DNA of 64,000 nt from a bacterium (GCA_043816765.1 JBDRHN010000023.1:17353-81352), one strand, 5' to 3'; counted from the first letter of the stretch, positions 16,808 through 62,888 are shown. The notes: generated from the letters alone by a model not told the origin. Program-made: numbers and translations.

Positions 16808-16836
16808 CTTAGACGAGGCAGTGCCTCGTCTCTACA
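16808..16836. repeat. 29-bp palindrome family A (GTAGAGACGAGGCA[C/G]TGCCTCGTCTCTAC), copy in groES-groEL spacer
   Basis: TTAGACGAGGCAGTGCCTCGTCTCTACA. Confidence 0.8.
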
Positions 16837-16849
16837 TTCAATCATCGCG

Positions 16850-17140
16850 CTATTCCAATATCGCCAATATATCCCCCTCTTCCAACACAAGCACTTTTTC
16901 CCCTTCAACCTTAATCTCATCCGGAGAATATTTTTTAAATAAAACTTTATCGCCGACTTTTACAGACATCTGCGCGCGCTCCCCGTTTTCTAAAAGTTTA
17001 CCCGACCCAACAGCAATAATTTCACCCTGCTCAGGCTTTTCGCCCTCAACAGTATCAGGTAAAATAATTCCTGATTTTGTCTGTTCGGTTTTGGCGATCG
17101 GTTTGATAATCACGCGATCGCCCAGTGGTTTAATTTTCAT
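16850..17140 (-). CDS. groS: co-chaperonin GroES
   Basis: MKIKPLGDRVIIKP... 96 aa. Confidence 0.96.
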   Translation of the reverse strand: MKIKPLGDRVIIKPIAKTEQTKSGIILPDTVEGEKPEQGEIIAVGSGKLLENGERAQMSVKVGDKVLFKKYSPDEIKVEGEKVLVLEEGDILAILE

Positions 17141-17272
17141 AATTTTGATTAGCTTTTGCGAATTGTTGCCGTTTTTATAAATTGAGATTACACAAAATTA
17201 TCACTTTTGTCATTCCGACCGAAACTGAAAAATTAAACAACTTTTCGCTAAAGTATAAATTATTAATTAGTT

Positions 17273-17299
17273 CTGGCACTCTAACTCAAAGAGTGCTAA
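17273..17299 (-). promoter_or_regulatory. CIRCE-like HrcA operator upstream of groES
   Basis: CTGGCACTC-N9-GAGTGCTAA matches TTAGCACTC-N9-GAGTGCTAA at 16/18, about 135 nt upstream of groES ATG. Confidence 0.7.
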
Positions 17300-17636
17300 T
17301 TATGAGATCATTTTAGTATAACTAAAATTTATTGTCAAGGAGCAACAGTAACTGCTCACTGACCCCCCCCATAAAAGTATAAGATTTCAAGAATAATTGT
17401 GTATTAAATTTCTTTTGACCACAATATATTGATTAGGTTACGGCGAATAAAAGCATAAATGGGGGGTCGGTGGGCAGTTACGAGCAACACTTTCTAATTG
17501 CGCCTTGCAAAACCCATCCATTTCAATTATAATAATTTTAAATTAAACTTTTAAACGACTAGAGCTTTCGCGTTTGCAGAACTCAGTGTCATTCCTATTG
17601 GAATGCCAAAACGCGAAAATCCTACAAACAACTACA

Positions 17637-19616
17637 ATGAAAAATCTACTCAAAAATATCCTTATAATCGTTCTTGTTTTCTTGATAATCGCAAGCGTTT
17701 TTAGCTTGTATAACGACAAAGAAACCGAACGGACAGAAGTTGGAATCGCGACAATCGCTGAAAAAGTTGAAAATGAAGAGGTGAAAAAAATCGCTGTTGT
17801 TGGCAACAAAATTGAAGTTGACTTAAAAAACGGTGAAGAATTAGTCAGTCAAAAAGAACCAAACGAATCATTCAGCCAAGCTATGGCAAATTATGGAGTT
17901 GACACTCAAAAATCAAGACAAATTCCTACCGACATCAAAGAAGAGACAGGAGCCGCTTTTTGGCTCGGCACAATGCTCCCTGTATTTCTGCCAATAATTT
18001 TTATATTCCTGCTGTTTTGGTTCGTTATGCGCGGAGTCCAAGGGGCGAATAACAGAGCCATTTCTTTTGGACACACGACAGCAAAAGAAAACAAGACGGA
18101 AAAAGATAAAAAACCTGAAGTAACTTTTAAAGATGTGGCAGGTGTAAAAGAGGCAAAAGCAGAACTTGAAGAGGTTGTTGAATTTTTAAAAACTCCTAAA
18201 AAGTTTTCTGACATGGGCGCTAAAATACCAAAAGGGGTTCTTTTGGTCGGCCCTCCCGGAACAGGTAAAACATTGCTTGCAAAAGCGGTTTCAGGAGAAG
18301 CGCAAGTTCCATTTTTTCATATATCGGGTTCGGAATTTGTGGAAATGTTTGTAGGTGTCGGGGCATCGCGCGCTCGCGACTTGTTTAAAAAAGCGAAAAA
18401 GAACGCGCCTTGTATTGTTTTCATTGACGAAATGGACGCCGTCGGACGACGGCGAGGAGCCGGACTTGGCGGCGGTCACGATGAGCGAGAGCAGACTCTT
18501 AACCAAATCTTGGTTGAAATGGACGGCTTTGAATTAAATTCCGGCGTCATAGTTTTGGCCGCGACCAACAGACCGGATGTTTTAGACCCGGCGCTTTTGC
18601 GTCCGGGAAGATTTGACCGCCAAGTAGTTCTTGACAATCCCGATATTAATGACAGAGAAAAAATTCTAGAAATTCACGCCAGAAAAAAACCTTTAGGCAA
18701 AGATGTTTCATTGCGTCAAATAGCCGAACGAACGCCCGGATTTTCCGGAGCTGACTTGGCTAACTTGCTAAACGAATCAGCAATACTGGCAACCAGAAGA
18801 AATAAAAAAGAGGTTGCCCAAGATGAGATTCTAGAAAGTATAGACAAAGTTCTGCTTGGACCACAAAGAAAAAGCCATATTCTTTCTGATAAAGAGAAAA
18901 AAATCACAGCCTGCCATGAAGCAGGTCATGCTCTTGTTTCTCACATATTGCCAAACGCCGACCCTGTGCATAAAGTTTCTATCATCTCGCGCGGACAAGC
19001 GGCTGGTTTTACAATGAATCTTCCGACAACAGATAAATATATGCACACAAAAACGGAATTCATAGATAATTTGGCTGTTCTTTTGGCTGGACACACAGCA
19101 GAACAAGAAACTTTTAACGATGTTACAACGGGCGCGTCAAACGATTTGAAAAGAGCGACGCAATTGGCAAGAAACTTGATTACGCAATGGGGAATGAGCG
19201 AAAAACTTGCGCCGCGAACTTATGGCGAGCAGGGTGATATGGTGTTTTTAGGAAAATCAATTCATGAACAGCGCGATTACAGTGAAAAAATCGCTGAAGA
19301 AATTGACACCGAAATCGCTGAGTTAATTATGCAAGCTGTAAATACCGCTAAAAAAATTATTCATGAAAATAAAGATACCCTTAAAAAAATAGCCGAGGAA
19401 CTTTTAAAGCACGAAACTTTGGAAAAAGAACACTTTGAAGCGATTTTTGATCCTGAAAAATTAAAGGCGTTTGAAGAGAAGCTGAAAAAAGCTGAAGAAG
19501 AAAAAAAGAAACAGGCGGAACTGGAAGCGAAAATTGCTTTGGAAAAAGAGGCGAAAGAAAAATTGGATGCGGCGAAGGATGGGGCGAAGGTTAAGAAAGG
19601 GAAAGAGGACATATGA
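17637..19616 (+). CDS. ftsH: ATP-dependent zinc metalloprotease FtsH with charged coiled C-terminal tail
   Basis: Walker [18 protein letters not shown] zinc motif; N-terminal TM; start at ATG 17637. Confidence 0.96.
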
Positions 19617-19654
19617 AAACCACATAAACGCGCCAACAACACCCCCAATAAAAA

Positions 19655-19692
19655 ACTTAGCTCAAATTTAAAAGCTAAGTTTTTTTATTTTT
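19655..19692 (+). terminator. Rho-independent terminator after ftsH (possibly bidirectional)
   Basis: ACTTAGCT-loop-AGCTAAGT hairpin followed by T8. Confidence 0.65.
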
Positions 19693-19712
19693 ATCTTTTT
19701 GTTGTTTTTACC

Positions 19713-20138
19713 TTAAACCGCGCCAGCCAATCTTTCTAGTCTTATAACTCTTTTTTCTATCCTCTCAACTTCTTCAACATCTACCTTGCGGCGAAGCATA
19801 CTTTTAACCTCAGTTAAATCATCTTTAATTACTTCTTGTCCTTTTTCAAGATTAGCTTGTCCTTTTCCGAGATTAATTATTTTATCTTTAATTGTTTCTT
19901 GTCCGCTTTCAAGATTAATTATTTTATCTTTAATCACCGCTTGCCCATCTTCAAGATTCGCCTGCCCCTTTTTAAGACCAACTATTTCTATTTTTATTGT
20001 ATCTATGATTTCACTCTGTTTTTTTTGTTCAATAGCGACAACTTCAGTAAAATCACGGTTCATTTTAATACCCTCGCAAACTATATCTAACTTACTTCGA
20101 AAATCTTCAATTAAAGCTCCTATTTTATAATCCTCCAT
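19713..20138 (-). CDS. hypothetical coiled-coil protein with four tandem 11-aa repeats
   Basis: GQANLEDGQAVIKDKIINLESGQETIKDKIINLGKGQANLEKGQEVIKDD; 33-nt DNA repeats 19830-19990. Confidence 0.6.
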   Translation of the reverse strand: MEDYKIGALIEDFRSKLDIVCEGIKMNRDFTEVVAIEQKKQSEIIDTIKIEIVGLKKGQANLEDGQAVIKDKIINLESGQETIKDKIINLGKGQANLEKGQEVIKDDLTEVKSMLRRKVDVEEVERIEKRVIRLERLAGAV

Positions 20139-20195
20139 AAAATTTTTATTAAGTTAATTATGTTTTTATTGTATTATAACAATCTAATGATGTCA

Positions 20196-20339
20196 ATTTT
20201 TTTCATCCTCCTTGCCGTCAATAATATTATCTAAAAATTTAATCGCGTCGTCTGCATTATCAAAAGAGTAATAATCGCCATTTTTTCTTTCTTCTTCTGA
20301 TTCTTTTAAAATTTTAATCAAATAATCTGTTGGTTCCAT
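20196..20339 (-). CDS. possible small acidic protein (48 aa)
   Basis: ATG..TGA ORF MEPTDYLIKILKESEEERKNGDYYSFDNADDAIKFLDNIIDGKEDEKN, same strand and upstream of repeat protein; below 60-aa track cutoff. Confidence 0.25.
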
Positions 20340-20377
20340 ATAACAATTTTTAAATTAAGTAAAATAGATTATTTCAC

Positions 20378-21511
20378 TCAAGTCAAAATCTCCCCCAACC
20401 TCCCGCTTTCAATCCCCTCTTTTATTTCCATTCCAATCCTCTGGCCATAACTGATTGAACTTCCATGCAAATAAGAAGTATATGGGGTGAAAATTGTTCC
20501 GGGAGAACCGGGGATTCGCATGCTAATGTCAAATATTACAATCTCTTCTTTTCCGTCTTGCGCCGCCACGGCACCCTGCAAAGCAAACGGACCAATAATT
20601 CCCGGCGCGCATTCTTGTTTTGAAACTTTAATAAACTTTTCTCCCAGTTCATACATCTTTTCAATAATAGACTCTTTAGTCGTGCACGCTATGTGTCCGG
20701 TTTCGATAAGTGTCGGTTTTACTTTCCCAGAATTTAAAAGTTCAGCCTGAATATCTGCTGGCAAGCGAAGCAAACCGTCAAGATTTGTCTGTCTACGAGT
20801 ATCTGTTCCCATTAATTCAAGCTCATCATTTAAGTTTGAATAGAAGAAGTTTAAATTCAACTGCGCGCCAATGATGTATTCTTCAATAACAGCTTTTAAT
20901 AAACTTTCATCATTAATTTTTCCTGATCTAATCAAATCCCCAGATACTGTTCTATAAGAATCAAAATCAGTGGCAAAGAAAAAAGAACGTTCATAACTTC
21001 GCTCTAATTCATTAACTTTTACAATCACCAGACGATCAATTTTTTTGGGATCATTAAAAATCTTAGGCATCCTGATCTTTGCTTTCTGCATTAAATAATA
21101 TTGATTCTTAGGAACATCACGCTCTTCAAGTTTCAACATTGAACGAGTTCCGTAAATCGGAACTAAAAAATCATTTTCAATTTTTTTAAAATCAAAATAA
21201 ACCCAAAAATAACGGTTGTGAATAAAAATTGTGTTCTTTTTAATTAGTTTATTTTGAACCTCTTTTTTTGTAATATCGCTGAATTTATCCAAAATTATAG
21301 TCTCATCAACGCAACCTTTCCCGTTTCGAGTTTTGTAATATTTATCATAAGTTTTCTCTCTCCCCTTTTGACAAACAACCAAAGTTTTAAACCCCAATTT
21401 TTTCGCCCCATTACAAACATCCAAAGCCGAGTGCCCACCCAAAACGCCAATGGTTATATTGTTGGCATCGTAATTTTTGATAATGTCTTTGATTTTATTT
21501 TGTGTTATCAT
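20378..21511 (-). CDS. PurP-like ATP-grasp (FAICAR synthetase family paralog, divergent)
   Basis: ITIGVLGGHSALDVCNGAKKLGFKTLVV and C-terminal PurP-like region; ORF-track N-terminus (MGWRRGSASSLQ) is translated palindrome, trimmed. Confidence 0.75.
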   Translation of the reverse strand: MITQNKIKDIIKNYDANNITIGVLGGHSALDVCNGAKKLGFKTLVVCQKGREKTYDKYYKTRNGKGCVDETIILDKFSDITKKEVQNKLIKKNTIFIHNRYFWVYFDFKKIENDFLVPIYGTRSMLKLEERDVPKNQYYLMQKAKIRMPKIFNDPKKIDRLVIVKVNELERSYERSFFFATDFDSYRTVSGDLIRSGKINDESLLKAVIEEYIIGAQLNLNFFYSNLNDELELMGTDTRRQTNLDGLLRLPADIQAELLNSGKVKPTLIETGHIACTTKESIIEKMYELGEKFIKVSKQECAPGIIGPFALQGAVAAQDGKEEIVIFDISMRIPGSPGTIFTPYTSYLHGSSISYGQRIGMEIKEGIESGRLGEILT

Positions 21512-21525
21512 AAAGTTAGTGTTTT

Positions 21526-21584
21526 GTAGAGACGAGGCACTGCCTCGTCTCCAGCCCAAGACGCGGCAGTGCCTCGTCTCTACA
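21526..21584. repeat. family A palindrome, two adjacent copies between the purP paralogs
   Basis: GTAGAGACGAGGCACTGCCTCGTCTC and AAGACGCGGCAGTGCCTCGTCTCTACA. Confidence 0.85.
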
Positions 21585-21586
21585 AA

Positions 21587-31343: not shown

Positions 31344-31877
31344 TTATTTAAAATAAACTCCTGCATACATTGCACTTTCCAAAATCATAATAACCAAATA
31401 ATACTTTTCCATTAACTCAAGGGATGAGACAATATGTTTATACTTTATGTCTTCGCTTAAAGAGTTTATGATTACCTTGGAAACCAAATGCTCTTCATCG
31501 CCTATTTTTTCAATTATTGCCTCGGAGGCAGTAAAAGCAAGCTTTATATAATAAACATCTTGACTTGGATATTTACAAAAACCGTTGCCAAAATAATATC
31601 CACTTTCTCTGGGGTTGCTGTTGAAAGAACTTATTCCTGAATCATACCTAAATGGACTAATTTTTTTATTAAAATTACCCATTATATCATCAATTTCAAA
31701 CTCAAAAGTCTTCATAAATTCACGAATTATCTCATCGTTTACCTTTAATTCAGCAAACAAAGAGACACATTGGGATATCCAATCAAGCAACTCCTTCTCC
31801 TGAAAAACTGTCTTATTGTCAATAAACTGTTTAAGTGCTTCTGCTCTTTTTTTGTACTCTTGTGATTTTAAATTCAT
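31344..31877 (-). CDS. hypothetical protein
   Basis: 177-aa ORF, no recognised motif. Confidence 0.5.
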   Translation of the reverse strand: MNLKSQEYKKRAEALKQFIDNKTVFQEKELLDWISQCVSLFAELKVNDEIIREFMKTFEFEIDDIMGNFNKKISPFRYDSGISSFNSNPRESGYYFGNGFCKYPSQDVYYIKLAFTASEAIIEKIGDEEHLVSKVIINSLSEDIKYKHIVSSLELMEKYYLVIMILESAMYAGVYFK

Positions 31878-31974: not shown

Positions 31975-32073
31975 CAAAAACCTGTATCCTGAACTGTCAC
32001 CGGATGGTGGCGTGGCTGGGACTCCCAGCATAGGGACGTGGTTGGGAAAAGCCCTTTTTTAGGGCGTTTTTTT
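31975..32073 (+). ncRNA. candidate small RNA (~100 nt) ending at intrinsic terminator
   Basis: no CDS; GC-rich structured core; terminator GCCCTTTTTTAGGGC + T7 at 32051-32073. Confidence 0.4.
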
Positions 32074-32442: not shown

Positions 32443-33444
32443 CTATAACGTCGTAATCGGCCTTGACTGCGTGATATAAAATTTACCTTTTGAAAAAGCC
32501 CATTCAATGTCTTGCGGTTTTTTGTAATGCTTTTCAATTTGACAGCAAATTTTGGACAGTTCAATTATTTGCTTGTTATTTAATTTCTGTTTTTCTTGTT
32601 TTGATTTTGAAACAGGTTGCCACACAATTCCTGAACTGGTTGAATTTTTGCGAACCAACATTTTTTCTTGCTCTGCAATATTTATATCTAAAATTTCAAA
32701 TTCTCCATCGTAGAGACGAGGCACTGCCTCGTCTCTATACTTGTTCACAATATAACTGTCCGGCGTTATCTGTCCTGAAACTATCGCCTCTCCCAGTCCG
32801 TATCCGGCTTCAATGATCATCTGATTTTTATCTTTTGTGATGGGGTGAACAGTGAAACAGACCCCTGATATTTCTGACTGGATCATTTTCTGAACCACAA
32901 CGGCAACGCCGATTTTTTGGTCAACTAAATTTTTTTCATAACGGTAAAAAATCGCTCTTGAGGTATAAAGCGATGACCAGCATTTCTTAACGTTTTTTAA
33001 AAGCGTTTTTTTTGTTGTGTTTAAATATGTTTCCAGCTCCCCGGCCCATGACGCTACTATTGAATCTTCTGCTGTGGCTGAACTGCGCACCGCCACAGAT
33101 TTTGCTTTAAGTTTTTTAAATTCCGCGTTAATTTCGTTAATTAAAACTTTCTGAATTTTGGTGTCGTTTATAATATCGCGAATAATATTAGACGCGCGGT
33201 CAATGGAATTTATGTCATCAAAATTTATTTGAGATAATTGGGCTTTTATTTCCAGCCCGACTTCCGCTGTCTCCGCGCGCGATCTCGCGCTTAAAAAATA
33301 ATCAAATGCGTCGGCTAAAATAACAAAACCATTCGGAACCGGAATTTTTACGTTAATCATTTCTCCGAGCGACGCGCCTTTCCCGCCGGCGGTTTTAATG
33401 TCTCTTGCGGAGATTTTTGAGAATGGGGAGGTGAATTTTGGCAT
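32443..33444 (-). CDS. PPDK_N-type ATP-grasp protein (PEP synthase / rifampin phosphotransferase N-domain family), stand-alone, with in-frame palindrome insertion
   Basis: GGKGASLGEM motif, RSSATAEDS, DIEWA..QSRPIT; insertion YRDEAVPRLYDGE at 32710-32738. Confidence 0.8.
   Translation of the reverse strand: MPKFTSPFSKISARDIKTAGGKGASLGEMINVKIPVPNGFVILADAFDYFLSARSRAETAEVGLEIKAQLSQINFDDINSIDRASNIIRDIINDTKIQKVLINEINAEFKKLKAKSVAVRSSATAEDSIVASWAGELETYLNTTKKTLLKNVKKCWSSLYTSRAIFYRYEKNLVDQKIGVAVVVQKMIQSEISGVCFTVHPITKDKNQMIIEAGYGLGEAIVSGQITPDSYIVNKYRDEAVPRLYDGEFEILDINIAEQEKMLVRKNSTSSGIVWQPVSKSKQEKQKLNNKQIIELSKICCQIEKHYKKPQDIEWAFSKGKFYITQSRPITTL
32710..32738. repeat. family A palindrome inside PPDK_N CDS (in frame)
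   Basis: GTAGAGACGAGGCACTGCCTCGTCTCTAT. Confidence 0.85.
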
Positions 33445-38902: not shown

Positions 38903-38944
38903 TTCGGGTAGGTTCGGCGACGTCGCCGAACCTACCCGAAAATT
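38903..38944 (-). terminator. 42-bp perfect GC-rich palindrome acting as efp terminator
   Basis: TTTTCGGGTAGGTTCGGCGACGTCGCCGAACCTACCCGAAAA; core shared with 10109-10130; T-run follows on minus strand. Confidence 0.6.
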
Positions 38945-39629: not shown

Positions 39630-39690
39630 CAAACGAGGCAATGCCTCATCTCTACAATCTTGGCGTATCGCAATACGCCTCTACAATAAC
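39630..39690. repeat. family A variant palindrome plus GGCGTATCGCAATACGCC hairpin, upstream of efp
   Basis: CAAACGAGGCAATGCCTCATCTCTACA. Confidence 0.7.
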
Positions 39691-39750: not shown

Positions 39751-39990
39751 TTACTTCGTTGTTATCGGCAAAAGCGCCATGACGCGAGCGCGTTTTATGG
39801 CAGTTTTCAGTTTTCTTTGATGTTTAGCGCATACATTGCTCCTTCTCGGGGGAACAATTTTAGCGTAAGAAGAGATAAATCTTCGCAAAATTGTTGTGTC
39901 TTTGTAATCAATTTCATCAATTTGATTAACGCAAAAATAACAATATCTTTTTTTATCCAACGTATTATTTGTTTTATTGTTTTTATTCAT
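39751..39990 (-). CDS. rpsR: 30S ribosomal protein S18
   Basis: CYFCVNQIDEIDYKDTTILRRFIS... S18 signature. Confidence 0.93.
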   Translation of the reverse strand: MNKNNKTNNTLDKKRYCYFCVNQIDEIDYKDTTILRRFISSYAKIVPPRRSNVCAKHQRKLKTAIKRARVMALLPITTK

Positions 39991-44501: not shown

Positions 44502-46061
44502 ATGCCAAAAAAAACCAAAATACTATTTCTACTACTCCTCTGTCCTCTGCTCTTTGTGCAACCGATTTTTGCGCAAGAAAAAACGGAACAACAAAAAGAC
44601 GCGTCGGTTGAGTCTGAGGAATCTAAAGCCGAAGAAAACACTGAGGAAGAAAATCAAGAAATAGAACCCATAATAACTTCTGAGGGCGCTATTTTTGTGG
44701 AGAAAAAAATACTGTTTGACGCTTCTGATTCGGTTCTTTTGAATATTCCGGCGCAAGTCAGTTATATTTGGAAATTTGACGACGGAACTTCCGCGAACGG
44801 TAAAGAGGTTTTGCATAGTTTCAAAAAAACGGGAAAGCATAAGGTGGAACTTACAATACAACAAGGCGCGCAAATTAAAGCAGCCGAAAAAGAAATTTTT
44901 ATTTATGATAAAAAGGTTTTATTAATCACAGACAGCGACAAACAAAGCGGACTTGAATTGATTACGGAACAAGCGGCGGATAATGGGGTCTTTCTTAAAA
45001 TGATTTCTGTAACAGAAGAAGAAACCGGATTTTTAACTGAAGAAAAACTTGTCCAAATTATTAAAGAAAACAGCGAATTTATTAATACGGCGGATGTGCT
45101 GATTTTTCACACTAAAACATCTTTAGGGTTGCAATCGTTTACTCGATATTGGCAACTCGCTGAAACCAAACCTGATTTGAAAAATAAATTAGTCGTTAAA
45201 ATTAGCGATGAAAGCATGCTTGTGGCGTCAAAAATCGCGCAACAAAATTTTGATGTTATTACGCCTAATTATATTTTACTGACAAGAAAAGAGGCGTTAA
45301 ATCCTATTTTTGAAACGAAAGATTATACTAAAATCGTTGAAAATCTGAAAAGCAGAGGTATTGAATATCAAATTATTGATGAGAGAACCGAGAGATCAAG
45401 ATTTTTTATTTTATCAAACTGGATTACAAACTTTATCGCAAACGGAATTCCGGCCAATACGATTTATCTTATTTTAGCAATTCCGTTTATCACTTTTATT
45501 ATCGCTTTCGCGCGCCAAGTCGTGGGAATTTCAACTTTCGGGGTTTATACTCCCACGGTTCTCGCGCTTACTTTTTTAATCTTGGGGATATATTTTGGAT
45601 TGGGGGCTTTGCTGATTGTGGTTTTTGTAAGTTATATGCTGAGGCTGGTTTTGCAAAGAATAGAACTTTTGTATACTCCGCGTCTGAGTTTGGCTCTTTC
45701 AACCATCAGCCTTTCTCTGCTCGCCATTATTTGGTTTTTGATAAAATTTGGCAGTCCGATATCGATTCCTCTTGCGATTTTTCCTTTGATTGTTATGTCG
45801 ACAATGTCGGAAAAATTTACCGCGGCGCAGTCTGAAGAAGGTTTGCGCGGAGCTCTCTTTGGCGCTTTTCAAACCATTCTAGTTGCCGTTGCCGCTTATT
45901 ATCTGGTGATTTGGACAGCTTTTTCTAACCTTCTAATGTATCTTCCCGAGCTTATATTTGTTCCTCTTGCCGGAAATATTTTGTTGGGCAAATTTACAGG
46001 TCTGCGCTTGACGGAATATTTCAGGTTTCGCGCGCTGTTCAAGGAACATACTGAAGAATAG
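44502..46061 (+). CDS. secreted/membrane protein: signal peptide, PKD-like ectodomain, C-terminal multi-TM (7TM-like) domain
   Basis: signal peptide LLLLCPLLFVQPIFA; PKD-like YIWKFDDGTSANGKEVLHSFKKTGKHKVELTI; ~7 TM helices in C-terminal 230 aa. Confidence 0.75.
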   Translation: MPKKTKILFLLLLCPLLFVQPIFAQEKTEQQKDASVESEESKAEENTEEENQEIEPIITSEGAIFVEKKILFDASDSVLLNIPAQVSYIWKFDDGTSANGKEVLHSFKKTGKHKVELTIQQGAQIKAAEKEIFIYDKKVLLITDSDKQSGLELITEQAADNGVFLKMISVTEEETGFLTEEKLVQIIKENSEFINTADVLIFHTKTSLGLQSFTRYWQLAETKPDLKNKLVVKISDESMLVASKIAQQNFDVITPNYILLTRKEALNPIFETKDYTKIVENLKSRGIEYQIIDERTERSRFFILSNWITNFIANGIPANTIYLILAIPFITFIIAFARQVVGISTFGVYTPTVLALTFLILGIYFGLGALLIVVFVSYMLRLVLQRIELLYTPRLSLALSTISLSLLAIIWFLIKFGSPISIPLAIFPLIVMSTMSEKFTAAQSEEGLRGALFGAFQTILVAVAAYYLVIWTAFSNLLMYLPELIFVPLAGNILLGKFTGLRLTEYFRFRALFKEHTEE

Positions 46062-46064
46062 TTT

Positions 46065-46093
46065 GTAGAGACGAGGCACTGCCTCGTCTCTAC
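46065..46093. repeat. family A palindrome between 7TM gene and ATP-grasp gene
   Basis: GTAGAGACGAGGCACTGCCTCGTCTCTACA. Confidence 0.85.
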
Positions 46094-46109
46094 ATTATTT
46101 TATTAATTT

Positions 46110-48458
46110 ATGTCTTTTAGAAAAACAAAAAAAGAAATTTTAGGCATTAACGCGAGGAATTTGCTTTATATTTCCAAATATAATTCCAGAGCGGCCAAAA
46201 AATTTGCTGATGATAAAATTTATACAAAAAATTATCTGCAGTCCCGCGATATGCCCGCCGCGCGGTTGTATCAAGTTATTCGGTCTTATACTGAATTGGA
46301 TAATTTTAATCCAGAAAGTCTTCCCGGCAGTTTTGTGATAAAACCAAACAAGGGATATGGCGGCGAAGGGATTATTGTTGTTGTGGATAAAAAAAATGAT
46401 AAATACATATCAGTTGACGGCACTAAATACAGATGGGATGGCGAGCTGTATCGCCATTGCGAAAGTATCCTAAGCGGACGTTATTCAATTTCCGGATTGC
46501 ATGATCAGATTATCTTTGAAGAATATTTAATCCGTCATGATTATTTTGATAAATTCACAAGCAAGGGTCTGCCGGATGTTCGCATTATTGTTTTTAATCT
46601 GATTCCCGTGATGGCGATGCTCCGGCTTCCAACGGAAGAATCTAAAGGAAAAGCAAATGTTCATTTGGGCGGGATTGGTCTTGGTATTGATATGAAAAGC
46701 GGAAAAACAACTTATGGTGTTACGCAAAAAAGCGTTTACAAAAATGAATTTATAAAAATCTTGCCAAATGGGGATCCTACAAACAGTATAACAATCCCCT
46801 ATTGGGATGAGATATTGCTAATGTCAGCTAAAGCTCAGGCCGCGAGCAAAATTGGTTATTTGGCGGCTGATTTGGCGATTACAAAAACAGGTGTAAAAAT
46901 TTTAGAATTAAACGCGCGCGCGGGGCTGGCTCTGCAAATTGCCAACCTCTCCCCTCTTCGGGCGCGTTTGGATAAGATTGTTGATTTGAAAGTTCTTACT
47001 CCCGAGCAAGGGGTTGAGATAAGTAAAACATTATTTACCAAAACCGCTTTACCTGCAAAAAAGGATGAAAATAAAACAGAAAGTTCAAAGCAGATTATCG
47101 GACTATATGAAAAAATAGAGATTTTGAATACTAAACATAAATCTATTTTAGCAAAAATCGATCCATGGGCAAAAGAAAATATTATTGATCAAGACATGGA
47201 TATTGAAGGACAAGACAAAATAGCGACAATTAAACTTTTAAACAAAAGAGTTACTTTTCCCTTTGTGAAAAAAAAACTCGGAGACGTTAATTATAAAGTT
47301 GTTATCGCGGGAAAATATTTAACGGATTTTTTGATTGACGCTAGCATCAGCAAACCGCAAGAACGAAAGGGTAAAAGCAATGTTGAGCAGGATGAAAAAA
47401 TTGCCATCAATGTTGATAAAAAAATCTGCCAAATTGATGAGGCTGTTCATCTGTTATCGTATTTACGTCCTTTAAATTTAGACGAGGAAAAAACAGCTTT
47501 TTTTGAGCATGCTAATTACAACCCTAAATTCATTTACCGCAAAGTCGCTATTGATGTTGAGCAACTTAAAAAAGATTTAAAAAAAATCCCGACTAAATTC
47601 AAACATCCTTTGGCTCCACTTTTTGTAAATAAAATAAAAGAGGTTGATAATAAATTATCTTTGATTGAGTCGGTTGATACTCCGAAACTTCAATTTTTTT
47701 CAGAAAAGCTTTATAGCGGCGTTGATAAAAATTTATATGATCAGGCTGTTGAATATATAAAACAGAATCCTATTACCAAAGATGAGAGTAAGATTTTAAA
47801 TTTTAAGACGAGCATAAAAAAAATCGAAAAATCGTTGAAAGAAAATAAATTGCATGGCTGGAAAATAAAAATAGTTGAAGGGGTGGCTGTTGATATGCAG
47901 GTTAATAAATCGGGGACTATTTTTGTTAAAAAAGGAGCGGAATTTTCGGTCAACAGATTGGAAAGTTTGATAGCGCACGAAATTAAAACCCATATTTTTA
48001 GGTTGGAAAATGGACGTTTGCAAAAATATAGAATTTTTGAAAGGGGCACTGCTGAGTATCTGACAACGGAAGAGGGGTTATCTATTTACAACCAAAACGC
48101 TTTAGGGATTCATTTGGGAGACAAACAGATATGGCCGGCGTTAAATGTTATTGCGGTATATATGGGATCGAAAATGAGTTTTCGCGAGTTACATAATTAT
48201 TTGATGGAAAACTATTTTATCAGCGCTGAATCGGCATGGAAAACATGCGTTAAGGCGAAAAGGGGTTATACGGACACGGGAGAACATCTGGTTTTCGCCA
48301 AAGACCATATTTATTTTAAAGGTTTGATGATGGTTGAAAAATTTGTTAAAAATTATGGGAAAGAGAAGTTGAAAGATTTGTATATTGGTAAAATCGGGGT
48401 TAATGAATTGAAATATGTTAAAAATATAAAGGATTATAGGGTGAAGTATTTGCCTTGA
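46110..48458 (+). CDS. fusion protein: RimK/alpha-L-glutamate-ligase-like ATP-grasp (N) + DUF1704 (QEGLA/MATCAP-like putative metallopeptidase) (C)
   Basis: N-terminus ILGINARNLLYISKYNSRAAKKFADDKIYTK matches TIGR02291-type ATP-grasps; C-half has HEIKTH and TEEGLS (QEGLA-like) motifs. Confidence 0.65.
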   Translation: MSFRKTKKEILGINARNLLYISKYNSRAAKKFADDKIYTKNYLQSRDMPAARLYQVIRSYTELDNFNPESLPGSFVIKPNKGYGGEGIIVVVDKKNDKYISVDGTKYRWDGELYRHCESILSGRYSISGLHDQIIFEEYLIRHDYFDKFTSKGLPDVRIIVFNLIPVMAMLRLPTEESKGKANVHLGGIGLGIDMKSGKTTYGVTQKSVYKNEFIKILPNGDPTNSITIPYWDEILLMSAKAQAASKIGYLAADLAITKTGVKILELNARAGLALQIANLSPLRARLDKIVDLKVLTPEQGVEISKTLFTKTALPAKKDENKTESSKQIIGLYEKIEILNTKHKSILAKIDPWAKENIIDQDMDIEGQDKIATIKLLNKRVTFPFVKKKLGDVNYKVVIAGKYLTDFLIDASISKPQERKGKSNVEQDEKIAINVDKKICQIDEAVHLLSYLRPLNLDEEKTAFFEHANYNPKFIYRKVAIDVEQLKKDLKKIPTKFKHPLAPLFVNKIKEVDNKLSLIESVDTPKLQFFSEKLYSGVDKNLYDQAVEYIKQNPITKDESKILNFKTSIKKIEKSLKENKLHGWKIKIVEGVAVDMQVNKSGTIFVKKGAEFSVNRLESLIAHEIKTHIFRLENGRLQKYRIFERGTAEYLTTEEGLSIYNQNALGIHLGDKQIWPALNVIAVYMGSKMSFRELHNYLMENYFISAESAWKTCVKAKRGYTDTGEHLVFAKDHIYFKGLMMVEKFVKNYGKEKLKDLYIGKIGVNELKYVKNIKDYRVKYLP

Positions 48459-54045: not shown

Positions 54046-54150
54046 TGAATAGCACACAGATGAACACTGACCCTGCGGGCGCAGATTAACACTAATTTTT
54101 TATAATTTTAAATCTGTGTTTATCTGCGCTTTAGTCTGTGTTAATCTGTG
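54046..54150 (-). repeat. ~100-bp CAGATAAACACAG-family repeat, copy 3 (inverted orientation)
   Basis: ATCTGTGTTTATCTGCGCTTTAGTCTGTGTTAATCTG is the reverse complement of copy-1 5' part. Confidence 0.8.
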
Positions 54151-54166
54151 TCCTATTTTTTTAATT

Positions 54167-54703
54167 ATGTATTTTGTAAAATTAAAAACCAAAAAAGATA
54201 CTGTTGGTTTTGCTAATCAAATAGCTAATATTTGCAACAATCAAACCCCCCAACCCCCCTTGTCAGGGGGGCTATATGTTGTTGCCCTCATTGGCGAGCT
54301 TGGGGTTGGGAAGACTTTTTTTACGAAAGCTTTGGGAAAGGCGCTTGGGGTTAAAGAAACGATTAAAAGTCCGAGTTTTAATTTGATGAAAGTTTATGAA
54401 ATACCGGGCAGACGAACCGTAGAGACGAGGCAGTGCCTCGTCTCTACACAAATCAAAACGTTAGTTCATGTTGATTGTTATCGTTTGAATAGTGCTGAGG
54501 AGTTAATTGATATTGGGCTTTTGGATTATTTTGGATATAATAATACTCTTATTGTTATTGAGTGGGCTGATAAAATAAAAAAAATCTTGCCGAAAGATGC
54601 AGTTTGGGTAAAATTTAAAATGGGAAAAGATGGGGTGAGAATGGCGGCGGTGAATTTAAAACCAATGTCATTCCAAAAAATTTTTTCCATCAATATTAGT
54701 TAA
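54167..54703 (+). CDS. tsaE: tRNA t6A biosynthesis ATPase TsaE with two in-frame palindromic insertions
   Basis: Walker A GELGVGKT; SPSFNLMKVYE...LVHVDCYRL TsaE signature interrupted by RRTVETRQCLVST (54419-54448); QTPQPPLSGG insertion at 54243-54272; start at ATG 54167. Confidence 0.78.
   Translation: MYFVKLKTKKDTVGFANQIANICNNQTPQPPLSGGLYVVALIGELGVGKTFFTKALGKALGVKETIKSPSFNLMKVYEIPGRRTVETRQCLVSTQIKTLVHVDCYRLNSAEELIDIGLLDYFGYNNTLIVIEWADKIKKILPKDAVWVKFKMGKDGVRMAAVNLKPMSFQKIFSINIS
54419..54448. repeat. family A palindrome inside tsaE (in frame)
   Basis: GTAGAGACGAGGCAGTGCCTCGTCTCTACA. Confidence 0.85.
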
Positions 54704-55939: not shown

Positions 55940-56012
55940 GCACCAATAACTCAGTGGTGAGAGTGCCACCCTTATAAGGTGGAAGTCGATGGTTCAAATC
56001 CATCTTGGTGCA
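55940..56012 (+). tRNA. tRNA-Ile (anticodon UAU)
   Basis: acceptor GCACCAA/TTGGTGC, D-arm ACTC-AGTGGTGA-GAGT, anticodon stem CCACC/GGTGG loop CTTATAA, T-arm GATGG-TTCAAAT-CCATC. Confidence 0.8.
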
Positions 56013-56093
56013 CAATATTGAACTTCTCTTTATGAAAAACGCCGAGGATTTTGGCGTTGGTTTAGATTATCTAACATTACATCCCCACTGGCA

Positions 56094-57496: not shown

Positions 57497-57498
57497 AT

Positions 57499-57527: not shown

Positions 57528-57537
57528 ACATTTATAT

Positions 57538-57592
57538 GGGTAGATGGAAGCCCTCGCTTCCACCGGCGCGAGCGAGGGCTCGCGCCTACCCG
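57538..57592. repeat. GC-rich palindromic element (GGGTAG...CTACCCG family)
   Basis: outer arms shared with 38903-38944 element; inner GCGAGCGAGGGCTCGCGC. Confidence 0.7.
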
Positions 57593-57617
57593 GATAAAAA
57601 TTTCTCTGCAAAAATTT

Positions 57618-58400: not shown

Positions 58401-58728
58401 TTCTCTACAAGAATTTGAAAAGGAGTTTAAGCGACTTTTCAAAAAATACAAAACACTGCGTGATGATTTGGAAAAGTTTAAAAATGTGCTCGAAAGTTGC
58501 CCTGCTGGCGTTGGAAAAAATTTTGTTATTATTCATTCAACTGAGACTATAAAAATAGTAAAAGCGCGCATGTCATGCCGCGCGCTTTGCGATAGATCTC
58601 TCCGTGTGATATATGGATATTTTCAACGAGAAGAAAAAATTATTTTCATTGAGATATATTTCAAGGGTGAGAAAGAAAACGAAAACCGCAAAAGAATTAA
58701 AGAGTATTTAAAAAACTCGCTAAACTGA
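58387..58728 (+). CDS. RelE/ParE-superfamily toxin (putative)
   Basis: RSLRVIYGYFQREEKIIFIEIYFKG C-terminal beta-sheet pattern of RelE/ParE/YafQ-like toxins. Confidence 0.55.
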   Translation: MRNFDSLQEFEKEFKRLFKKYKTLRDDLEKFKNVLESCPAGVGKNFVIIHSTETIKIVKARMSCRALCDRSLRVIYGYFQREEKIIFIEIYFKGEKENENRKRIKEYLKNSLN

Positions 58729-59010
58729 ATTTAACCATTTCACATATTCCCTACTCCCCTCGGCTTCAATTTTAATAACGCACGGAGTTTCATAACTAAT
58801 TAGTTATTGTGTAAAAACTCGTTTTTAACGTAAAATTAAGTTTGGGGCTTTGCTAATGTTAGCATCATTACGCAGAACTAAGCAGAATTTGACGCAGAAA
58901 AACGCAGAAATTACACAGGAACTAATTAGCAAAAATGGACAAATTGTCATTCTGATTGACAATTTGTCCATTTTTCTATAAACTTAAAATATAATAAATA
59001 ATAAAAAAAT

Positions 59011-60174
59011 ATGTATATAGATAGAACACTGGAGAAAAAAATCAAACAATTAGCTAAAACTTATCCCGTTGTTGCGTTAACCGGACCCAGACAATCTGGA
59101 AAAACAACAATGGTTAAAAAAATATTTTCTGGAAAAAAATATATATCATTGGAAAATTTAGACAACAGAGCCTTTGCCAAAAATGATCCCAGGGGATTTT
59201 TAAAAACTTATAAAAATGGAGCAGTCATAGACGAAGCGCAAAATGTTCCTGAATTATTTTCTTACATTCAGGAAATTGTAGACACAAACAAAAAACCAGG
59301 GGAATTTATTTTGACGGGTTCGCAAAATTTTTTATTGATGGAAAAAATTAATCAAAGTCTGGCGGGCAGAATAGCTATAACCACCCTTCTGCCTCTTAGT
59401 ATGGAAGAAATCAGTAAAAAGACAAAAAAATTACAGCTAAATCAATTAATGCTTAATGGACAATATCCGATTATTTATGAAAAAAAAATAGACGCAAATG
59501 AATGGTATCAAAATTATATTAAAACATATATTGAAAGGGATGTCAGACTAATGAAAAATATAACTGACTTAAATTTATTCCAAAAATTCGTTAAACTATG
59601 CGCGGGGCGAATTGGACAAATTTTGAACCTAACTTCAATCGCAAATGATTGCGGGGTAAGCCATAATGTTATCAGGGGATGGATATCTATCTTGGAAGCA
59701 AGTTATATAATTTTTCTCTTGCACCCCTATTATGAAAATTTTAACAAACGTCTTATCAAAATGCCAAAAATATATTTTTATGACACAGGGCTTGCGGCAT
59801 CATTGCTTGGCATAGAAGATAAAGACAAGTTTGATATTAATCCGTTTAAAGGGGGTCTGTTTGAATCATTTGTTATTTCAGAAATTATGAAAAAAGAATA
59901 TAACAAAGGCAGAACTCCAAACATATATTTTTGGAGGGATAAAACCGGGCATGAAATAGATTGTTTATATGAAAATAAAAGAAAAAAATACGCGATAGAA
60001 ATAAAATCAGCGAAAACGATAAACAGTGATTTTTTTGACAACTTAAATTATCTGCAAAAAATTTCAAAAAATAATTTTACGAATTCTGTTTTAATTTACG
60101 GTGGAAACGAAAAACAGAACAGAAATGACGCAACTGTCTTGGGCTGGAACAACTTTGTTTCCAAATTGAATTAG
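59011..60174 (+). CDS. AAA+ ATPase, COG1373/DUF4143 family (third paralog)
   Basis: Walker A GPRQSGKT, Walker B VIDEAQ. Confidence 0.8.
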   Translation: MYIDRTLEKKIKQLAKTYPVVALTGPRQSGKTTMVKKIFSGKKYISLENLDNRAFAKNDPRGFLKTYKNGAVIDEAQNVPELFSYIQEIVDTNKKPGEFILTGSQNFLLMEKINQSLAGRIAITTLLPLSMEEISKKTKKLQLNQLMLNGQYPIIYEKKIDANEWYQNYIKTYIERDVRLMKNITDLNLFQKFVKLCAGRIGQILNLTSIANDCGVSHNVIRGWISILEASYIIFLLHPYYENFNKRLIKMPKIYFYDTGLAASLLGIEDKDKFDINPFKGGLFESFVISEIMKKEYNKGRTPNIYFWRDKTGHEIDCLYENKRKKYAIEIKSAKTINSDFFDNLNYLQKISKNNFTNSVLIYGGNEKQNRNDATVLGWNNFVSKLN

Positions 60175-62072
60175 ACTTGTATAATCACCGGCAACACCAT
60201 CGGGCGACGTTTTGTTTTTGAGAACAGGAATTGCCCGATGTCGTTTCTTATTTTATCTTTTGTGTATGCTTCAAAAGTCGGGGATTTTTTATCGCTGTCT
60301 TGAAGAATTTTTTTCGCTTTTTTTCTGGTCTGTTCTATCAGCTCTTTGCTCTCTTTCATATAAACAAACCCGCGGGAAATGATGTCGGGGTTGCCGACTA
60401 ATTCCCCTGTTTTATGCCGCAATGTGGCGATAATAACAACCATTCCGTCTTCCGACATCATTCGTCGGTCTCGCAGAACGATATTAGAAACATCGCCGAC
60501 GCCAAGTCCGTCAACCATCACATAATCGGTCGGCACTTTTTTATTTGTCAATTTTCCGATCGTTTCATCGCCCTGTTTATAAAATTCCATTATCTGCCCA
60601 TTGTCCGCAACCATAATATTGGAACGCGGGATGCCAATGCTGTGGGCGTGATCGGCGTGAATGCGCAACATATAGTGATACGCCTCTATCGGAATAAAAT
60701 ATTTAGGCTTTATCAAATTTATCATCAATTTTGCATCTTCTGCCTTTGCGTGTCCTCCCGCGTGAACGTCCATCATTTGATAATTTATAACTTTCGCCCC
60801 CTTGCGATAAAAAGTATCGTTTAACGCCTGAATTGTTCTTTCATTGCCGGGAATTACTGAAGATGAAAAAACGACTAGGTCGCTGGGGGCTACTGCTAAA
60901 AATCTATGGTCGCCGGATGCGAAACGGGTTAAAAACGCGTTCTGCTGTCCTTGCGCTCCTGTTCCCACGACAACAACTTTGTTGTCCGGCAAGCTTTTAA
61001 CTTCTTCATAACTATTGATTAGAGTATTTGGTCTGAATTTTAAATAGCCAAGTTTGTGAGCGATTTCTACATTGTCTTTCATGCTGCGGCCTTCCAGTAA
61101 AATCCTGCGGCCATGTTTTTCCGCAATATCAACAATCAGTTGAATTCTGGAAATCATGCTCGCAAATGTGCCGATTATAATTCTCCCTTCGGCCATTTCA
61201 AATATTTTATCAATATCAATACCAATGTCTTTTTCTGAAAGCTGGTGTCCCGGGTGTTCGGCGTTTGTGCTGTCAGACATTAAAGCTAATACGCCGCTGG
61301 ATCCATACTGCGCTATTTTTGAAAGATCAGCCGGAGTGTCATTGACAGGAGTATGATCAAATTTATAATCGCCGGTGTGAATAATTTGCCCCACTGGGGT
61401 TTTAATCGCCAGCCCAAAACTGTCGGGGATGCTGTGATTAATTTTGAAAAATTCCACCTGAAAACTATTTCCCATGCGCGCGCGATAGCCGTCTAAAACT
61501 ATTTGGATATTTAATTTCGGCGCGTCGCGGTATTCTTCCTGACGTTTATTCATGAGTCCTGCGGATAATCTGCCGGCATACATAAGCGGGTTGCCGAGTT
61601 TTGGCATCAGGTGCGGCACGGCGCCGATGTGATCCATATGTCCATGGGTAATAATCACACCTTTGATATTTTTTTCTTTTCCTTTTAGGTAACTAATATT
61701 AGGAATTACATAATCAATTCCAGGCATATCTTCATCCGGAAACTGCATCCCCATGTCAATGATAATTATATCGTCATTGAATTCCATGACTGTCATATTG
61801 CGTCCGACTTCTTCCAGTCCGCCTAAAACTATTACTTTTAATCTGTTTCTCGCGTCATTTTCAACATGACTGCTAAATTGTTCTATGTCTTGTCTTGATT
61901 CAACTTTTTGATCAACATGCGGTCGGCGATTTATAATATTAAATTTCCTCCGATCACCAGTTCCCCTTTTCACGTCAACCGCGGCGGATGCTTGATCTGC
62001 TGTTTTTCTTTCTGTTTTTGTTTTGGACAAATTTGGCAAAACTTTTCTTGCCCATGTTGTTTTTGTTTCCAT
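60171..62072 (-). CDS. rnj: ribonuclease J
   Basis: metallo-beta-lactamase HGHMDHIG, beta-CASP region, ~630 aa. Confidence 0.9.
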   Translation of the reverse strand: METKTTWARKVLPNLSKTKTERKTADQASAAVDVKRGTGDRRKFNIINRRPHVDQKVESRQDIEQFSSHVENDARNRLKVIVLGGLEEVGRNMTVMEFNDDIIIIDMGMQFPDEDMPGIDYVIPNISYLKGKEKNIKGVIITHGHMDHIGAVPHLMPKLGNPLMYAGRLSAGLMNKRQEEYRDAPKLNIQIVLDGYRARMGNSFQVEFFKINHSIPDSFGLAIKTPVGQIIHTGDYKFDHTPVNDTPADLSKIAQYGSSGVLALMSDSTNAEHPGHQLSEKDIGIDIDKIFEMAEGRIIIGTFASMISRIQLIVDIAEKHGRRILLEGRSMKDNVEIAHKLGYLKFRPNTLINSYEEVKSLPDNKVVVVGTGAQGQQNAFLTRFASGDHRFLAVAPSDLVVFSSSVIPGNERTIQALNDTFYRKGAKVINYQMMDVHAGGHAKAEDAKLMINLIKPKYFIPIEAYHYMLRIHADHAHSIGIPRSNIMVADNGQIMEFYKQGDETIGKLTNKKVPTDYVMVDGLGVGDVSNIVLRDRRMMSEDGMVVIIATLRHKTGELVGNPDIISRGFVYMKESKELIEQTRKKAKKILQDSDKKSPTFEAYTKDKIRNDIGQFLFSKTKRRPMVLPVIIQV

Positions 62073-62287
62073 AATTTTGTAATGCTAAAAATAGACAATT
62101 TGCGGAAAAAAATATTTCGCGCGTTCCCCCTCCCGCAGATGGGGCTATGGAGATGGTTTTGGTTGTCGTGTAATTAACAAGAGTTCTTTTTTTCCCGTCC
62201 GCAAGTTTGCGGAATGGATTAATTGTTATTTAAGTTGTTAAAATTTATTTTGAGGTAATTGGGATTAAATATATTCAGTGCCAAATG

Positions 62288-62410
62288 CAGACTATCTAAA
62301 AATCATATCTGTGTTAATCTTCGCTTTAGTCTGTGTTCATCTGTGTCCTATTTTCAATCAACCCAAGCTAAAAAATAATTAGACGCAGATTAACACTGAC
62401 CCTTCGGGCG
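62288..62410 (-). repeat. CAGATAAACACAG-family repeat, copy 4 (rearranged, inverted)
   Basis: ATCTGTGTTAATCTTCGCTTTAGTCTGTGTTCATCTGTG ... AGACGCAGATTAACACTGACCCTTCGGGCG. Confidence 0.7.
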
Positions 62411-62818
62411 CTGAAAAACACAGATTTTAGATAAAAACTTTTTTAATTCAGGAACAATATCATCTATGTTCTCGTATTCAATCACAATATCGGTAATACC
62501 TTTTGCGGTATCTTTCAATAAAACTCCGCGCTTCACAAGAACTATTATTTTTTTATTCATTGCATAAGCAATTCCCGCTTCTATGGCGCGCCCTGTTGAC
62601 TTATGCGTGAGATCAATCAATAGCGCGTCGCATGATTTAATCTCCTGTTTTGTTATTGCCATCATTTCCAACGGATTATCAAAAAAATTTTGATAATTTT
62701 CTATATCACGAATAAAACAAAAATCATTAAATCCTGCTTGCTTTGCAATATTGCAAAGATGTTCTATCTCGGATTGGTTTTCACCGTGCTTAAAAGTGGC
62801 TGTAATAAATAACTTCAT
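62390..62818 (-). CDS. nucleoside 2-deoxyribosyltransferase-like protein
   Basis: HKSTGRAIEAGIAYAMNKKIIVL resembles the NDT-family active-site region; C-terminus overlaps the repeat. Confidence 0.5.
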   Translation of the reverse strand: MKLFITATFKHGENQSEIEHLCNIAKQAGFNDFCFIRDIENYQNFFDNPLEMMAITKQEIKSCDALLIDLTHKSTGRAIEAGIAYAMNKKIIVLVKRGVLLKDTAKGITDIVIEYENIDDIVPELKKFLSKICVFQRPKGQC

Positions 62819-62860
62819 CGTGTTTCCAAATGTTAATAAAATAACCTAACGACGCATTTT

Positions 62861-62888
62861 GTAGAGACGCATTGCAATGCGTCTCTAC
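62861..62888. repeat. family A variant palindrome (GTAGAGACGCATTGCAATGCGTCTCTAC)
   Basis: perfect 14-bp arms with altered core. Confidence 0.75.

Follow-up and report, generated by a model that had tools for sequence, protein, structure and literature searches.

A dispersed, translatable 29-bp palindrome in DNA of apparent candidate phyla radiation origin is probably a GTAG-headed REP element, with RAYT-like genes in related genomes

The REP-RAYT systems, in which repetitive extragenic palindromes (REPs) are paired with REP-associated tyrosine transposases (RAYTs), are the best-studied mobile DNA that is mostly vertically inherited and 'domesticated', and they are known mainly from Proteobacteria. 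According to the passages on classification in two studies, the GTAG-type REPs are defined by a GT(A/G)G head (PMC3733652, PMC2817692), which in the classical REP is unpaired and single, as described in the corresponding part of PMC3733652. Their transposase, TnpA-REP, requires the hairpin plus GTAG and cleaves single-stranded DNA (ssDNA) at CT/CA (PMC8266576, PMC3479197). Here we analysed a 64,000-nt stretch of bacterial DNA (GCA_043816765.1, JBDRHN010000023.1:17353-81352; called the window below, with positions counted from its first letter), in which a GC-rich 29-bp palindrome is dispersed. This palindrome is probably a GTAG-headed REP, that is, the 29-bp non-autonomous hairpin element of a REP-RAYT system. 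It has the structure by which the GTAG type is recognised, and it is linked to RAYT-like genes in the way of the REPtrons, as far as both are treated in the relevant sections of PMC2817692 and PMC3733652. The window has a GC content of 33-40%, and the closest database homologues of its proteins are mostly labelled Patescibacteria or candidate phyla radiation (CPR), so it looks like part of a CPR-type genome.

The first-pass annotation of the window had reported a perfect 29-bp palindrome at eight loci, with two of the copies marked as variants. Members of the family are present at all of these positions, in the consensus form GTAGAGACGAGGCA-N-TGCCTCGTCTCTAC or in a degenerate or variant-centre form, but only the copies at 46065 and 54419 match the full consensus, the others keeping the core and having lost part of one terminal tag. 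The 29-mer GTAGAGACGAGGCACTGCCTCGTCTCTAC, allowing at most three mismatches, was found at 21526, 32710, 46065 and 54419 and had zero matches in 100 shuffles of the window; the 23-bp core GAGACGAGGCANTGCCTCGTCTC, searched at the same threshold, additionally gave 16810, 21558 and 39630, with 0 expected by chance. Moreover, a scan for GTAG...CTAC palindromes yielded a further family member at 14850-14878 and, at 38908, a member of a second family (0.06 expected per shuffle). The former, a perfect one, was missing from the earlier list, as was a degenerate unit at 39662-39684. In total, the window contains 10 units at 9 loci, spread over 48 kb, against a chance expectation of 0. The copies are spaced irregularly, 2-11 kb apart, and a CRISPR array was rejected for lack of regular spacing. 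Nor is the pattern a local duplication confined to the window, since the exact core occurs at at least 111 loci in at least 59 other assemblies.

The anatomy of the element was worked out from 111-121 exact-core copies, namely those listed from other genomes plus those of the window. What is conserved measures exactly 29 bp, with the boundaries GTA...TAC and with GTAG on both strands, and GTA/TAC is kept in 89-104 of 111 copies among the matches listed. At the central base, the window copies have C or G and the 111 copies listed elsewhere have A (37), T (33), G (22) or C (19); because this base is free, the two 'orientations' of the centre that had been distinguished earlier carry no information. 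In the flanks beyond GTA/TAC of the 111 copies listed, complementarity is no higher than chance (36 observed vs 33 expected), and insertion into pre-existing palindromes was rejected on this count. A pyrimidine stands directly 5' of GTAG in 76% of the flanks; this -1 preference is all that is conserved there, and the CT dinucleotide found just 5' of GTAG at the E. coli cleavage site is not. Direct-repeat flanks, as left by a target-site duplication, were sought for k = 1-6 and none was seen. In addition, half-sites lie nearly always within the palindrome (14/258 are outside, and nearly all of these 14 are degenerate palindromes), which shows that the unit is the hairpin itself and not the ends of a longer element. 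As ssDNA it is predicted to fold into a hairpin of -15.5 kcal/mol (z = -9) with a stem of 13-14 bp, and 0/200 shuffles fold as well. It is thus a GC-rich short palindrome in the range of REP stem-loops (20-40 bp), and it has the GT(A/G)G head, though on both strands and paired. Only one of the three reading frames has a stop, and this holds alike for either strand: frame 1 reads VETR[HQ]CLVST, frame 3 reads RDEA[LMV]PRLY and frame 2 contains TAG.

The exact 23-bp core was scanned over one genome per species, the taxon names being the submitters' labels. At least 35 of the assemblies listed belong to the CPR/Patescibacteria (Moranii-, Falkow-, Buchanan-, Komeili-, Magasanik- and Saccharibacteria, and Wirthbacteria). 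Among the matches listed there are also five assemblies labelled Omnitrophota, one WOR-3 metagenome-assembled genome (MAG) with the core on 6 contigs, one Calditrichaceae MAG with 7, one assembly each of Bdellovibrionales and Bacteroidales, and five of Gammaproteobacteria. Several contigs start at the palindrome, as is expected because a repeat breaks assemblies. A collection of viral contigs contained no exact core match, so there is no sign of a phage vehicle. Under a stricter definition of the family, core-carrying genomes contain about 2.2 additional copies in each 64 kb, and the window beyond its first copy has 5 by that definition and 9 by the lenient count, which together suggest a density of tens to about 100-150 copies per Mb; the hundreds per genome given in the first-pass annotation are an extrapolation. 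One of the sequences with the core (L023; OW818689.1, a 7.2-Mb 'metagenome chromosome') also has nearby degenerate loop-less copies (GAGACGAGGCATGCCTCGTCTC), and by its size this assembly cannot be a CPR genome.

In the loci selected by the core, an E. coli YafM seed, which served as a lead only, picked out Y1 transposase-like open reading frames (ORFs). These exceed the cut-off of Pfam Y1_Tnp (PF01797; 25.9-47 bits vs 23), and their invariant residues include H82, H84 and Y172, that is, an HUH motif and a catalytic tyrosine. The best and only NCBIfam match is the REP-associated tyrosine transposase (NF047646), with 56.7-64 bits. Furthermore, a 31-sequence profile searched against PDB gave 4ER8 (E. 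coli TnpA-REP) as its sole match (E = 4e-6). The AlphaFold model (pLDDT 79.7) matches the transposases of IS608, ISDra2 and IS200 as well as 4ER8: in the fold search IS608/ISDra2 came first by E-value, and 4ER8 had both the lowest rmsd (3.7 A) and the best query-normalised TM (0.54); in target-normalised TM (0.63) it was surpassed by several ISDra2/IS608 chains. The subfamily has 1331 homologues at E <= 1e-10, many of which JGI calls 'REP element-mobilizing transposase RayT', and the NCBI names on them include Moranbacteria, Patescibacteria, Parcubacteria, Magasanikiibacteriota, WOR-3, KSB1 and Flavobacteriales. In one Komeilibacteria assembly, two 8-kb loci (L011 and L036) together contain at least three RAYT-like ORFs, which hints that these genes are multi-copy there.

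In the related genomes, the same palindrome variants are found both within the gene of the RAYT-like subfamily and around it. The analysis covered 77 RAYT loci, 80 of the candidates having come from a metagenome scan. Between the HUH and WQxRF motifs, 68 of the 77 genes have a GC-rich palindrome, a density of 4.69/kb vs 0.26/kb in the surrounding DNA, and in 47 genes this internal palindrome is clearly of the GTAG...CTAC form. In L031, L036, L050, L065 and L098 it lies in the RAYT frame as (C/R)RDEA[LM]PRLY, just after the HUH strand, and nearly all of the 113 homologues with both motifs have a palindrome-encoded peptide at that place, with differing centres (among them RDEALPRLY, VETQHCCVST, VETQNFASL, RDALQCVST, RDAINRVST and VETLQCNVST). 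The peptide RDALQCVST corresponds to the variant that the window has at 62861, and this variant recurs inside the RAYT-like gene of locus L116. Outside the gene, a palindrome lies just upstream in 38 loci and just downstream in 32, and flank and internal copies share an arm in 27 of the 44 loci that have both. Loci in which the RAYT is flanked by the same palindrome, as in a REPtron, include L114, L116, L065, L026, L120, L146 and L153. The cleanest is L114, where one variant occurs three times (at -45 nt, in mid-gene and on the stop codon) with no other copy in 20 kb. With the loop masked, a RAYT and its nearest relative agree in their internal variant in 79 of 104 cases, vs 22.7 by permutation; RAYT clades and palindrome variants co-vary. 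In the structural model, the palindrome-encoded stretch (residues 98-117 of P0001) is a disordered loop that leads from the HUH strand to the following helix.

Some RAYT homologues (P0013, P0014, P0016, P0029, P0033, P0040, P0042, P0048 and P0068) have two half-degenerate palindromes in this loop, with the outer ends intact and the inner ones degenerate, and between them lie 30-70 aa that are repetitive (QHQDAI repeats, for example) or of low complexity. DNA seems to build up between two REP copies inside the RAYT gene. The same pattern of intact outer and degenerate inner ends is seen in the window doublet at 21526/21558.

The boundaries of the element could be read in another way, as those of a minimal MITE (a miniature transposable element with inverted repeats) moved by a DDE (IS630/Tc1-mariner-like) transposase, whose 23-25-bp core inserts at TA and duplicates it (G-TA-[core]-TA-C). 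The element can indeed be parsed as TA, a 23-bp core and TA, and such a built-in repeat is indistinguishable from a TA duplication. However, the outer G and C are as conserved as the TA (89-104/111 among the matches listed), which a TA duplication would not explain, and neither a longer element bounded by the half-sites nor other direct-repeat flanks were found. A 25-bp insertion, moreover, could never remain in frame, whereas 43% of the copies are in frame in ORFs, and the strong, variant-matched association is with Y1 transposase genes. We therefore consider an origin by a DDE transposase highly improbable.

The in-frame copies amount to 52 of 121 (the listed loci plus the window), all of them at least 30 codons inside long ORFs and always in one of the two open frames. 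Among the host genes are those for NAD-dependent DNA ligase (LigA), LepA, MetH, KsgA, a class I aminoacyl-tRNA synthetase and radical-SAM enzymes. Orthologous copies inside coding sequences (CDSs) are retained though the host genes are only 65-84% identical in nucleotides (47-77% at third positions), and between them the 29-mer is intact save for its unconstrained centre or a terminal base; as the exact core served to pick out these pairs, this conservation is overestimated. Likewise, an orthologue of the window gene for a PPDK_N protein, at 84.6% nucleotide identity, retains 27/27 nt of the copy at 32710. Retention at orthologous sites indicates that the element is under selection, is re-homogenised, or has targeted the same sites repeatedly. 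Among the LepA homologues P0244-P0363, many CPR proteins have REP-like peptides of varied variants (VETRQCLVST, VETQDFASL, VETRHGASL, VGTRHASFL and VETSNGASL) at the linker between VPAP and LRALIFDS, some without net length change. This suggests either an old insertion that is decaying or a hot spot hit repeatedly.

Intact copies in diverged host genes would also be expected of a host motif under selection, either a DNA uptake signal or a protein-binding site or structural hairpin, that is kept or regenerated by selection or biased conversion. The identical 29-mer is common to genomes labelled as several phyla, which would suit such a motif, and CPR bacteria are generally thought to be dependent on DNA uptake. 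On the other hand, a 29-bp perfect palindrome in loops of LigA, LepA, KsgA and TsaE arises far more easily by insertion than by point mutation, the ascertainment through the exact core inflates the conservation of the orthologous pairs, and the variants follow the RAYT clades and are located within and next to RAYT genes. The observed density of about one palindrome per 6-30 kb is also below that of known uptake signals. As the whole explanation a host motif is improbable; it may be an added layer, which leaves the RAYT linkage unexplained.

Several observations weigh against the assignment of the palindrome to the REPs. The head of a classical REP is unpaired and at one end only, whereas here GTAG is on both strands and paired with CTAC. 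Classical REPs are overwhelmingly extragenic, whereas 43% of the copies here are in frame inside genes, and a family with 52/121 intra-ORF copies is not predominantly extragenic. No clean empty site was seen among the homologues compared, and the apparent insert size differs from gene to gene (+11 aa for PPDK_N, +13-16 for KsgA and about +8 for the linker of LepA), so these comparisons do not fix the length of the mobile unit. The RAYT-like proteins, at 56.7 and 64 bits, do not reach the equivalog cut-off of NF047646 (80 bits). In addition, an hmmsearch of the 64-kb window with the family profile gave no RAYT at E <= 10; of the cognate transposase that the first-pass annotation had envisaged, a candidate was thus found in related genomes and not in the window itself, and it is by analogy that the element is presumed to be mobile and this genome to encode a cognate RAYT. 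The REP-like character proposed earlier is nevertheless upheld by the GC-rich hairpin, the GT(A/G)G head, the dispersal over 48 kb and the RAYT linkage in related genomes.

How such an element might spread can be drawn by analogy with the TnpA-REP enzymes of E. coli, Stenotrophomonas and Marinomonas and with IS608. When single-stranded, e.g. at replication forks, the element would fold into its 13-14-bp stem, and a REP-associated Y1/HUH tyrosine transposase would recognise the hairpin and the GTAG foot, as the RAYT-like enzyme may do here in binding or cleaving the 29-bp hairpin. The enzyme would then cut and rejoin ssDNA, and the element would be copied or moved without target duplication; cleavage and rejoining of single strands with recognition of hairpin plus GTAG is the biochemistry of TnpA-REP (PMC8266576). 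With a fully symmetric GTAG on both strands, either strand would offer the same substrate. Inserted copies could persist as hairpins at mRNA 3' ends or between cistrons, one of them resembling a bidirectional terminator, and others as protein loops of about 10 aa, which would be tolerated because, on each strand, only one of the three frames has a stop.

We tentatively propose, as a possibility that is still somewhat doubtful, that the RAYT clade is a self-contained REPtron, in which the gene carries its cognate REP in its own frame and usually further copies at its ends. If so, the embedded copy would be a heritable master template and/or an autoregulatory hairpin, and the transfer of one gene of about 600 bp would seed a new genome with both enzyme and substrate. 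This would explain the identical 29-mer from CPR to Omnitrophota, WOR-3 and Calditrichota, and its continual refreshing, and the stop-free symmetric design would let the element colonise coding genes of streamlined genomes as 10-aa loops. The REP family described here is found in very small, gene-dense genomes with scarce intergenic space, a problem that appears to be solved by its being translatable in two frames of either strand, and essential proteins such as TsaE, LigA, LepA and KsgA are decorated by it. The copy that nearly all of the RAYT genes contain provides a testable handle on how a RAYT stays matched to its REP and on how such systems cross lineages. In practice, the repeat breaks assemblies, and the 10-aa inserts are worth recognising in annotation pipelines and in alignments of CPR proteins.

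In the window, the six intergenic loci all follow gene 3' ends, in unidirectional or convergent spacers and none in a divergent one, a placement also reported for REPs in the pertinent section of PMC3733652. The gene contexts assigned earlier (the groES-groEL spacer, the purP-like paralogs, the position after the 7TM_transglut gene and the two intra-CDS copies) are correct. The variant-centre member at 14850-14878 (GTAGAGACACGCCATTGGCGTGTCTCTAC, i.e. GTAGAGAC-ACGCCATTGGCGT-GTCTCTAC), a perfect 29-bp palindrome, lies between the convergent metK and groEL with A- and T-run flanks. The copy at 16808-16835, in the groES-groEL spacer, is intact in its core and 3' tag, while its 5' tag (CTTAGACG...) is degenerate. 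Between the two purP-like paralogs, which carry DUF1246/DUF1297, there is a doublet: its first unit (21526-21554) has an intact 5' tag and a degenerate inner 3' tag (CTCCAG, the 3' end being ...CCAG), and its second (21558-21583) has a degenerate inner 5' tag (AAGACGCGGCA) and an intact outer 3' tag, with 3 nt between its end and the stop codon of the purP-like gene upstream. By computed fold the doublet can form one 64-nt hairpin of -32.1 kcal/mol. The degenerate copy at 39630-39655 (CAAACGAGGCAATGCCTCATCTCTAC), with three mismatches within the core, is downstream of rpsR (39751-39990, minus strand) and upstream of efp, and is adjoined at 39662-39684 by a second, degenerate unit with a different stem (GGCGTATCGCAATACGCC) and the family 3' tail TCTAC. 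The perfect consensus at 46065-46093 begins 4 nt past the end of a 7TM_transglut/PKD gene and 17 nt before an ATP-grasp/MATCAP gene. At 62861-62888, downstream of purA (62943-63968, minus strand), a different self-complementary centre, GCATTGCAATGC, is set between the usual ends as GTAGAGAC-GCATTGCAATGC-GTCTCTAC, which makes a perfect 28-bp palindrome.

The remaining copies of the window, at 2 of the 9 loci, are internal to CDSs, and both are translated in frame. A perfect consensus inside tsaE (54116-54703, plus strand) at 54419-54447 is read as VETRQCLVST. The copy at 32710-32738, whose 3' end is ...CTAT, lies in the gene of a PPDK_N (phosphoenolpyruvate/pyruvate-binding) protein (32443-33444, minus strand) as YRDEAVPRLY, and 11 residues of this region are absent from 321-aa homologues. 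An orthologue of the latter gene in L112 (81% aa identity) has at the exact REP site an unrelated 33-nt repeat of AAAGTC type (SKVKSLKSKVS), equal to the REP insert in length, and a third relative, L113, carries the REP there.

The placement after gene 3' ends could suggest intrinsic terminators or mRNA-stabilising hairpins that evolved independently and are merely alike, as every intergenic copy of the window is so placed and the copy at 14850, with its A/T-run flanks, scores as a bidirectional terminator, the one copy to be flagged as terminator-like. A T-tail, however, is present on a single copy, two window copies and 43% of those elsewhere are inside CDSs, and an identity at 28/29 positions across at least 59 assemblies cannot arise independently. 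Because of the copies in CDSs and the identity across genomes, independent terminators are practically excluded.

Some other features of the window were recorded. The gene pair at 44502-48458 encodes a membrane protein with PKD and 7TM_transglut domains, followed by an ATP-grasp protein (ATPgrasp_ST) fused to a MATCAP-like carboxypeptidase domain, and one of the perfect REPs is within its 48-bp spacer. Small ORFs beside the copies were considered as RAYT candidates and rejected, being identified as EF-P, SSB, S6, TsaE and KhpA, and Rfam gave no family at the palindrome copies. A second palindrome family, built on AGGTTCGGCG, is found at 38908-38935 and 10100-10139, with a half-site at 8561 (8 matches of the motif in the window vs 1.6 expected); its GTAGGTTCGGCGACGTCGCCGAACCTAC is within a 70-bp inverted repeat with A/T runs directly after efp, and the related GGGGACAGGTTCGGCG...CGCCGAACCTGCCCCC is inside an ORF at 9703-10806 (minus strand). 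At 57531-57598, between genes, there is an imperfect inverted repeat (GGGTAGATGGAAGCCCTCGCT...AGCGAGGGCTCGCGCCTACCC, 79% complementary), which contains GTAG and has a stem unrelated to the REP. An Rfam DUF3800-IX RNA motif at 31979-32047 (plus strand; 52.9 bits vs a gathering score of 36.8) adjoins an unannotated 177-aa ORF (31344-31877, minus strand) with no Pfam match. A tRNA-Ile with the anticodon TAT (UAU) is encoded at 55940-56013 (plus strand); most bacteria read AUA with a lysidine-modified CAU tRNA, so it looked unusual.

Compared with known families of small repeats, the palindrome resembles the bacterial MITEs with terminal inverted repeats (TIRs) and TA duplication, e.g. the Correia elements, which are likewise small, dispersed, palindromic and often at gene ends. 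Unlike these, it has no internal segment bounded by TIRs and no solitary TIRs or half-sites, and apart from its built-in TA, which is ambiguous, it shows no target-site duplication, so the MITE-like label of the first-pass annotation does not apply. The Rickettsia palindromic elements (RPEs) are another related case, RPE-1 being about 100-150 bp long. The unit here differs in encoding about 10 aa (VETR[HQ]CLVST or RDEA[LMV]PRLY) and in having a candidate RAYT. Like it, the RPEs and the intragenic REPs of Opitutus terrae lie in frame in housekeeping proteins including those of DNA repair and translation, according to the passages on them in PMC3733652, where the CGTC-type repeats (including RPE-4 and RPE-6) are reported without association to a transposase gene. 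With the IS200/IS605 elements (IS608 and ISDra2) the system shares the transposase fold and the lack of target duplication and would share hairpin recognition and a 5' tetranucleotide guide, but no transposase is carried here between two distinct ends, and the mobile unit is apparently the hairpin alone. As for the REP doublets known as REPINs (PMC3116915, PMC3337134), the doublet at 21526-21583, with intact outer and degenerate inner tags and one long hairpin possible, has the look to be expected of a doublet that moves as a unit. Unlike REPINs, however, doublets are a minority here (2 of the 9 window loci and a handful of 117 copies elsewhere), and the single 29-mer is itself symmetric. The earlier comparison with bacterial interspersed mosaic elements (BIMEs) is not sustained either, as there are only two short doublets (21526/21558 and 39630/39662) and orientation is undefined for a symmetric unit.

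The closest likeness is to the GTAG REPs and REPtrons of Escherichia, Pseudomonas and Stenotrophomonas, as described in parts of PMC2817692, PMC3733652, PMC3333891 and PMC8266576. As in these, a short GC-rich GT(A/G)G hairpin occurs in what appear to be many dispersed copies, mostly after gene 3' ends, and in several variant sub-families per genome, and in related genomes a Y1/HUH gene is flanked by its own REP variant, RAYT clades co-varying with REPs and target duplication being absent. Full-text searches of the paper library consulted found no report of REP-RAYT in CPR/Patescibacteria, which is not proof of novelty, and string searches with the DNA and peptide motifs gave only unrelated primers. 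Distinct from the classical REPs are the perfect 29-bp palindrome with a 1-3-nt loop and the predominance of single units without BIME arrays, and the RAYT-like proteins are below the NCBIfam equivalog cut-off. Furthermore, the copy within the RAYT coding sequence in 68/77 genes is not mentioned in the portions of the REP/RAYT literature examined (Nunvar 2010, Bertels 2017, the 2018 HUH survey and the RAYT section of Di Nocera 2013). Finally, classical REPs are found within a genus or order, whereas the palindrome described here has an identical sequence across lineages labelled as different phyla.

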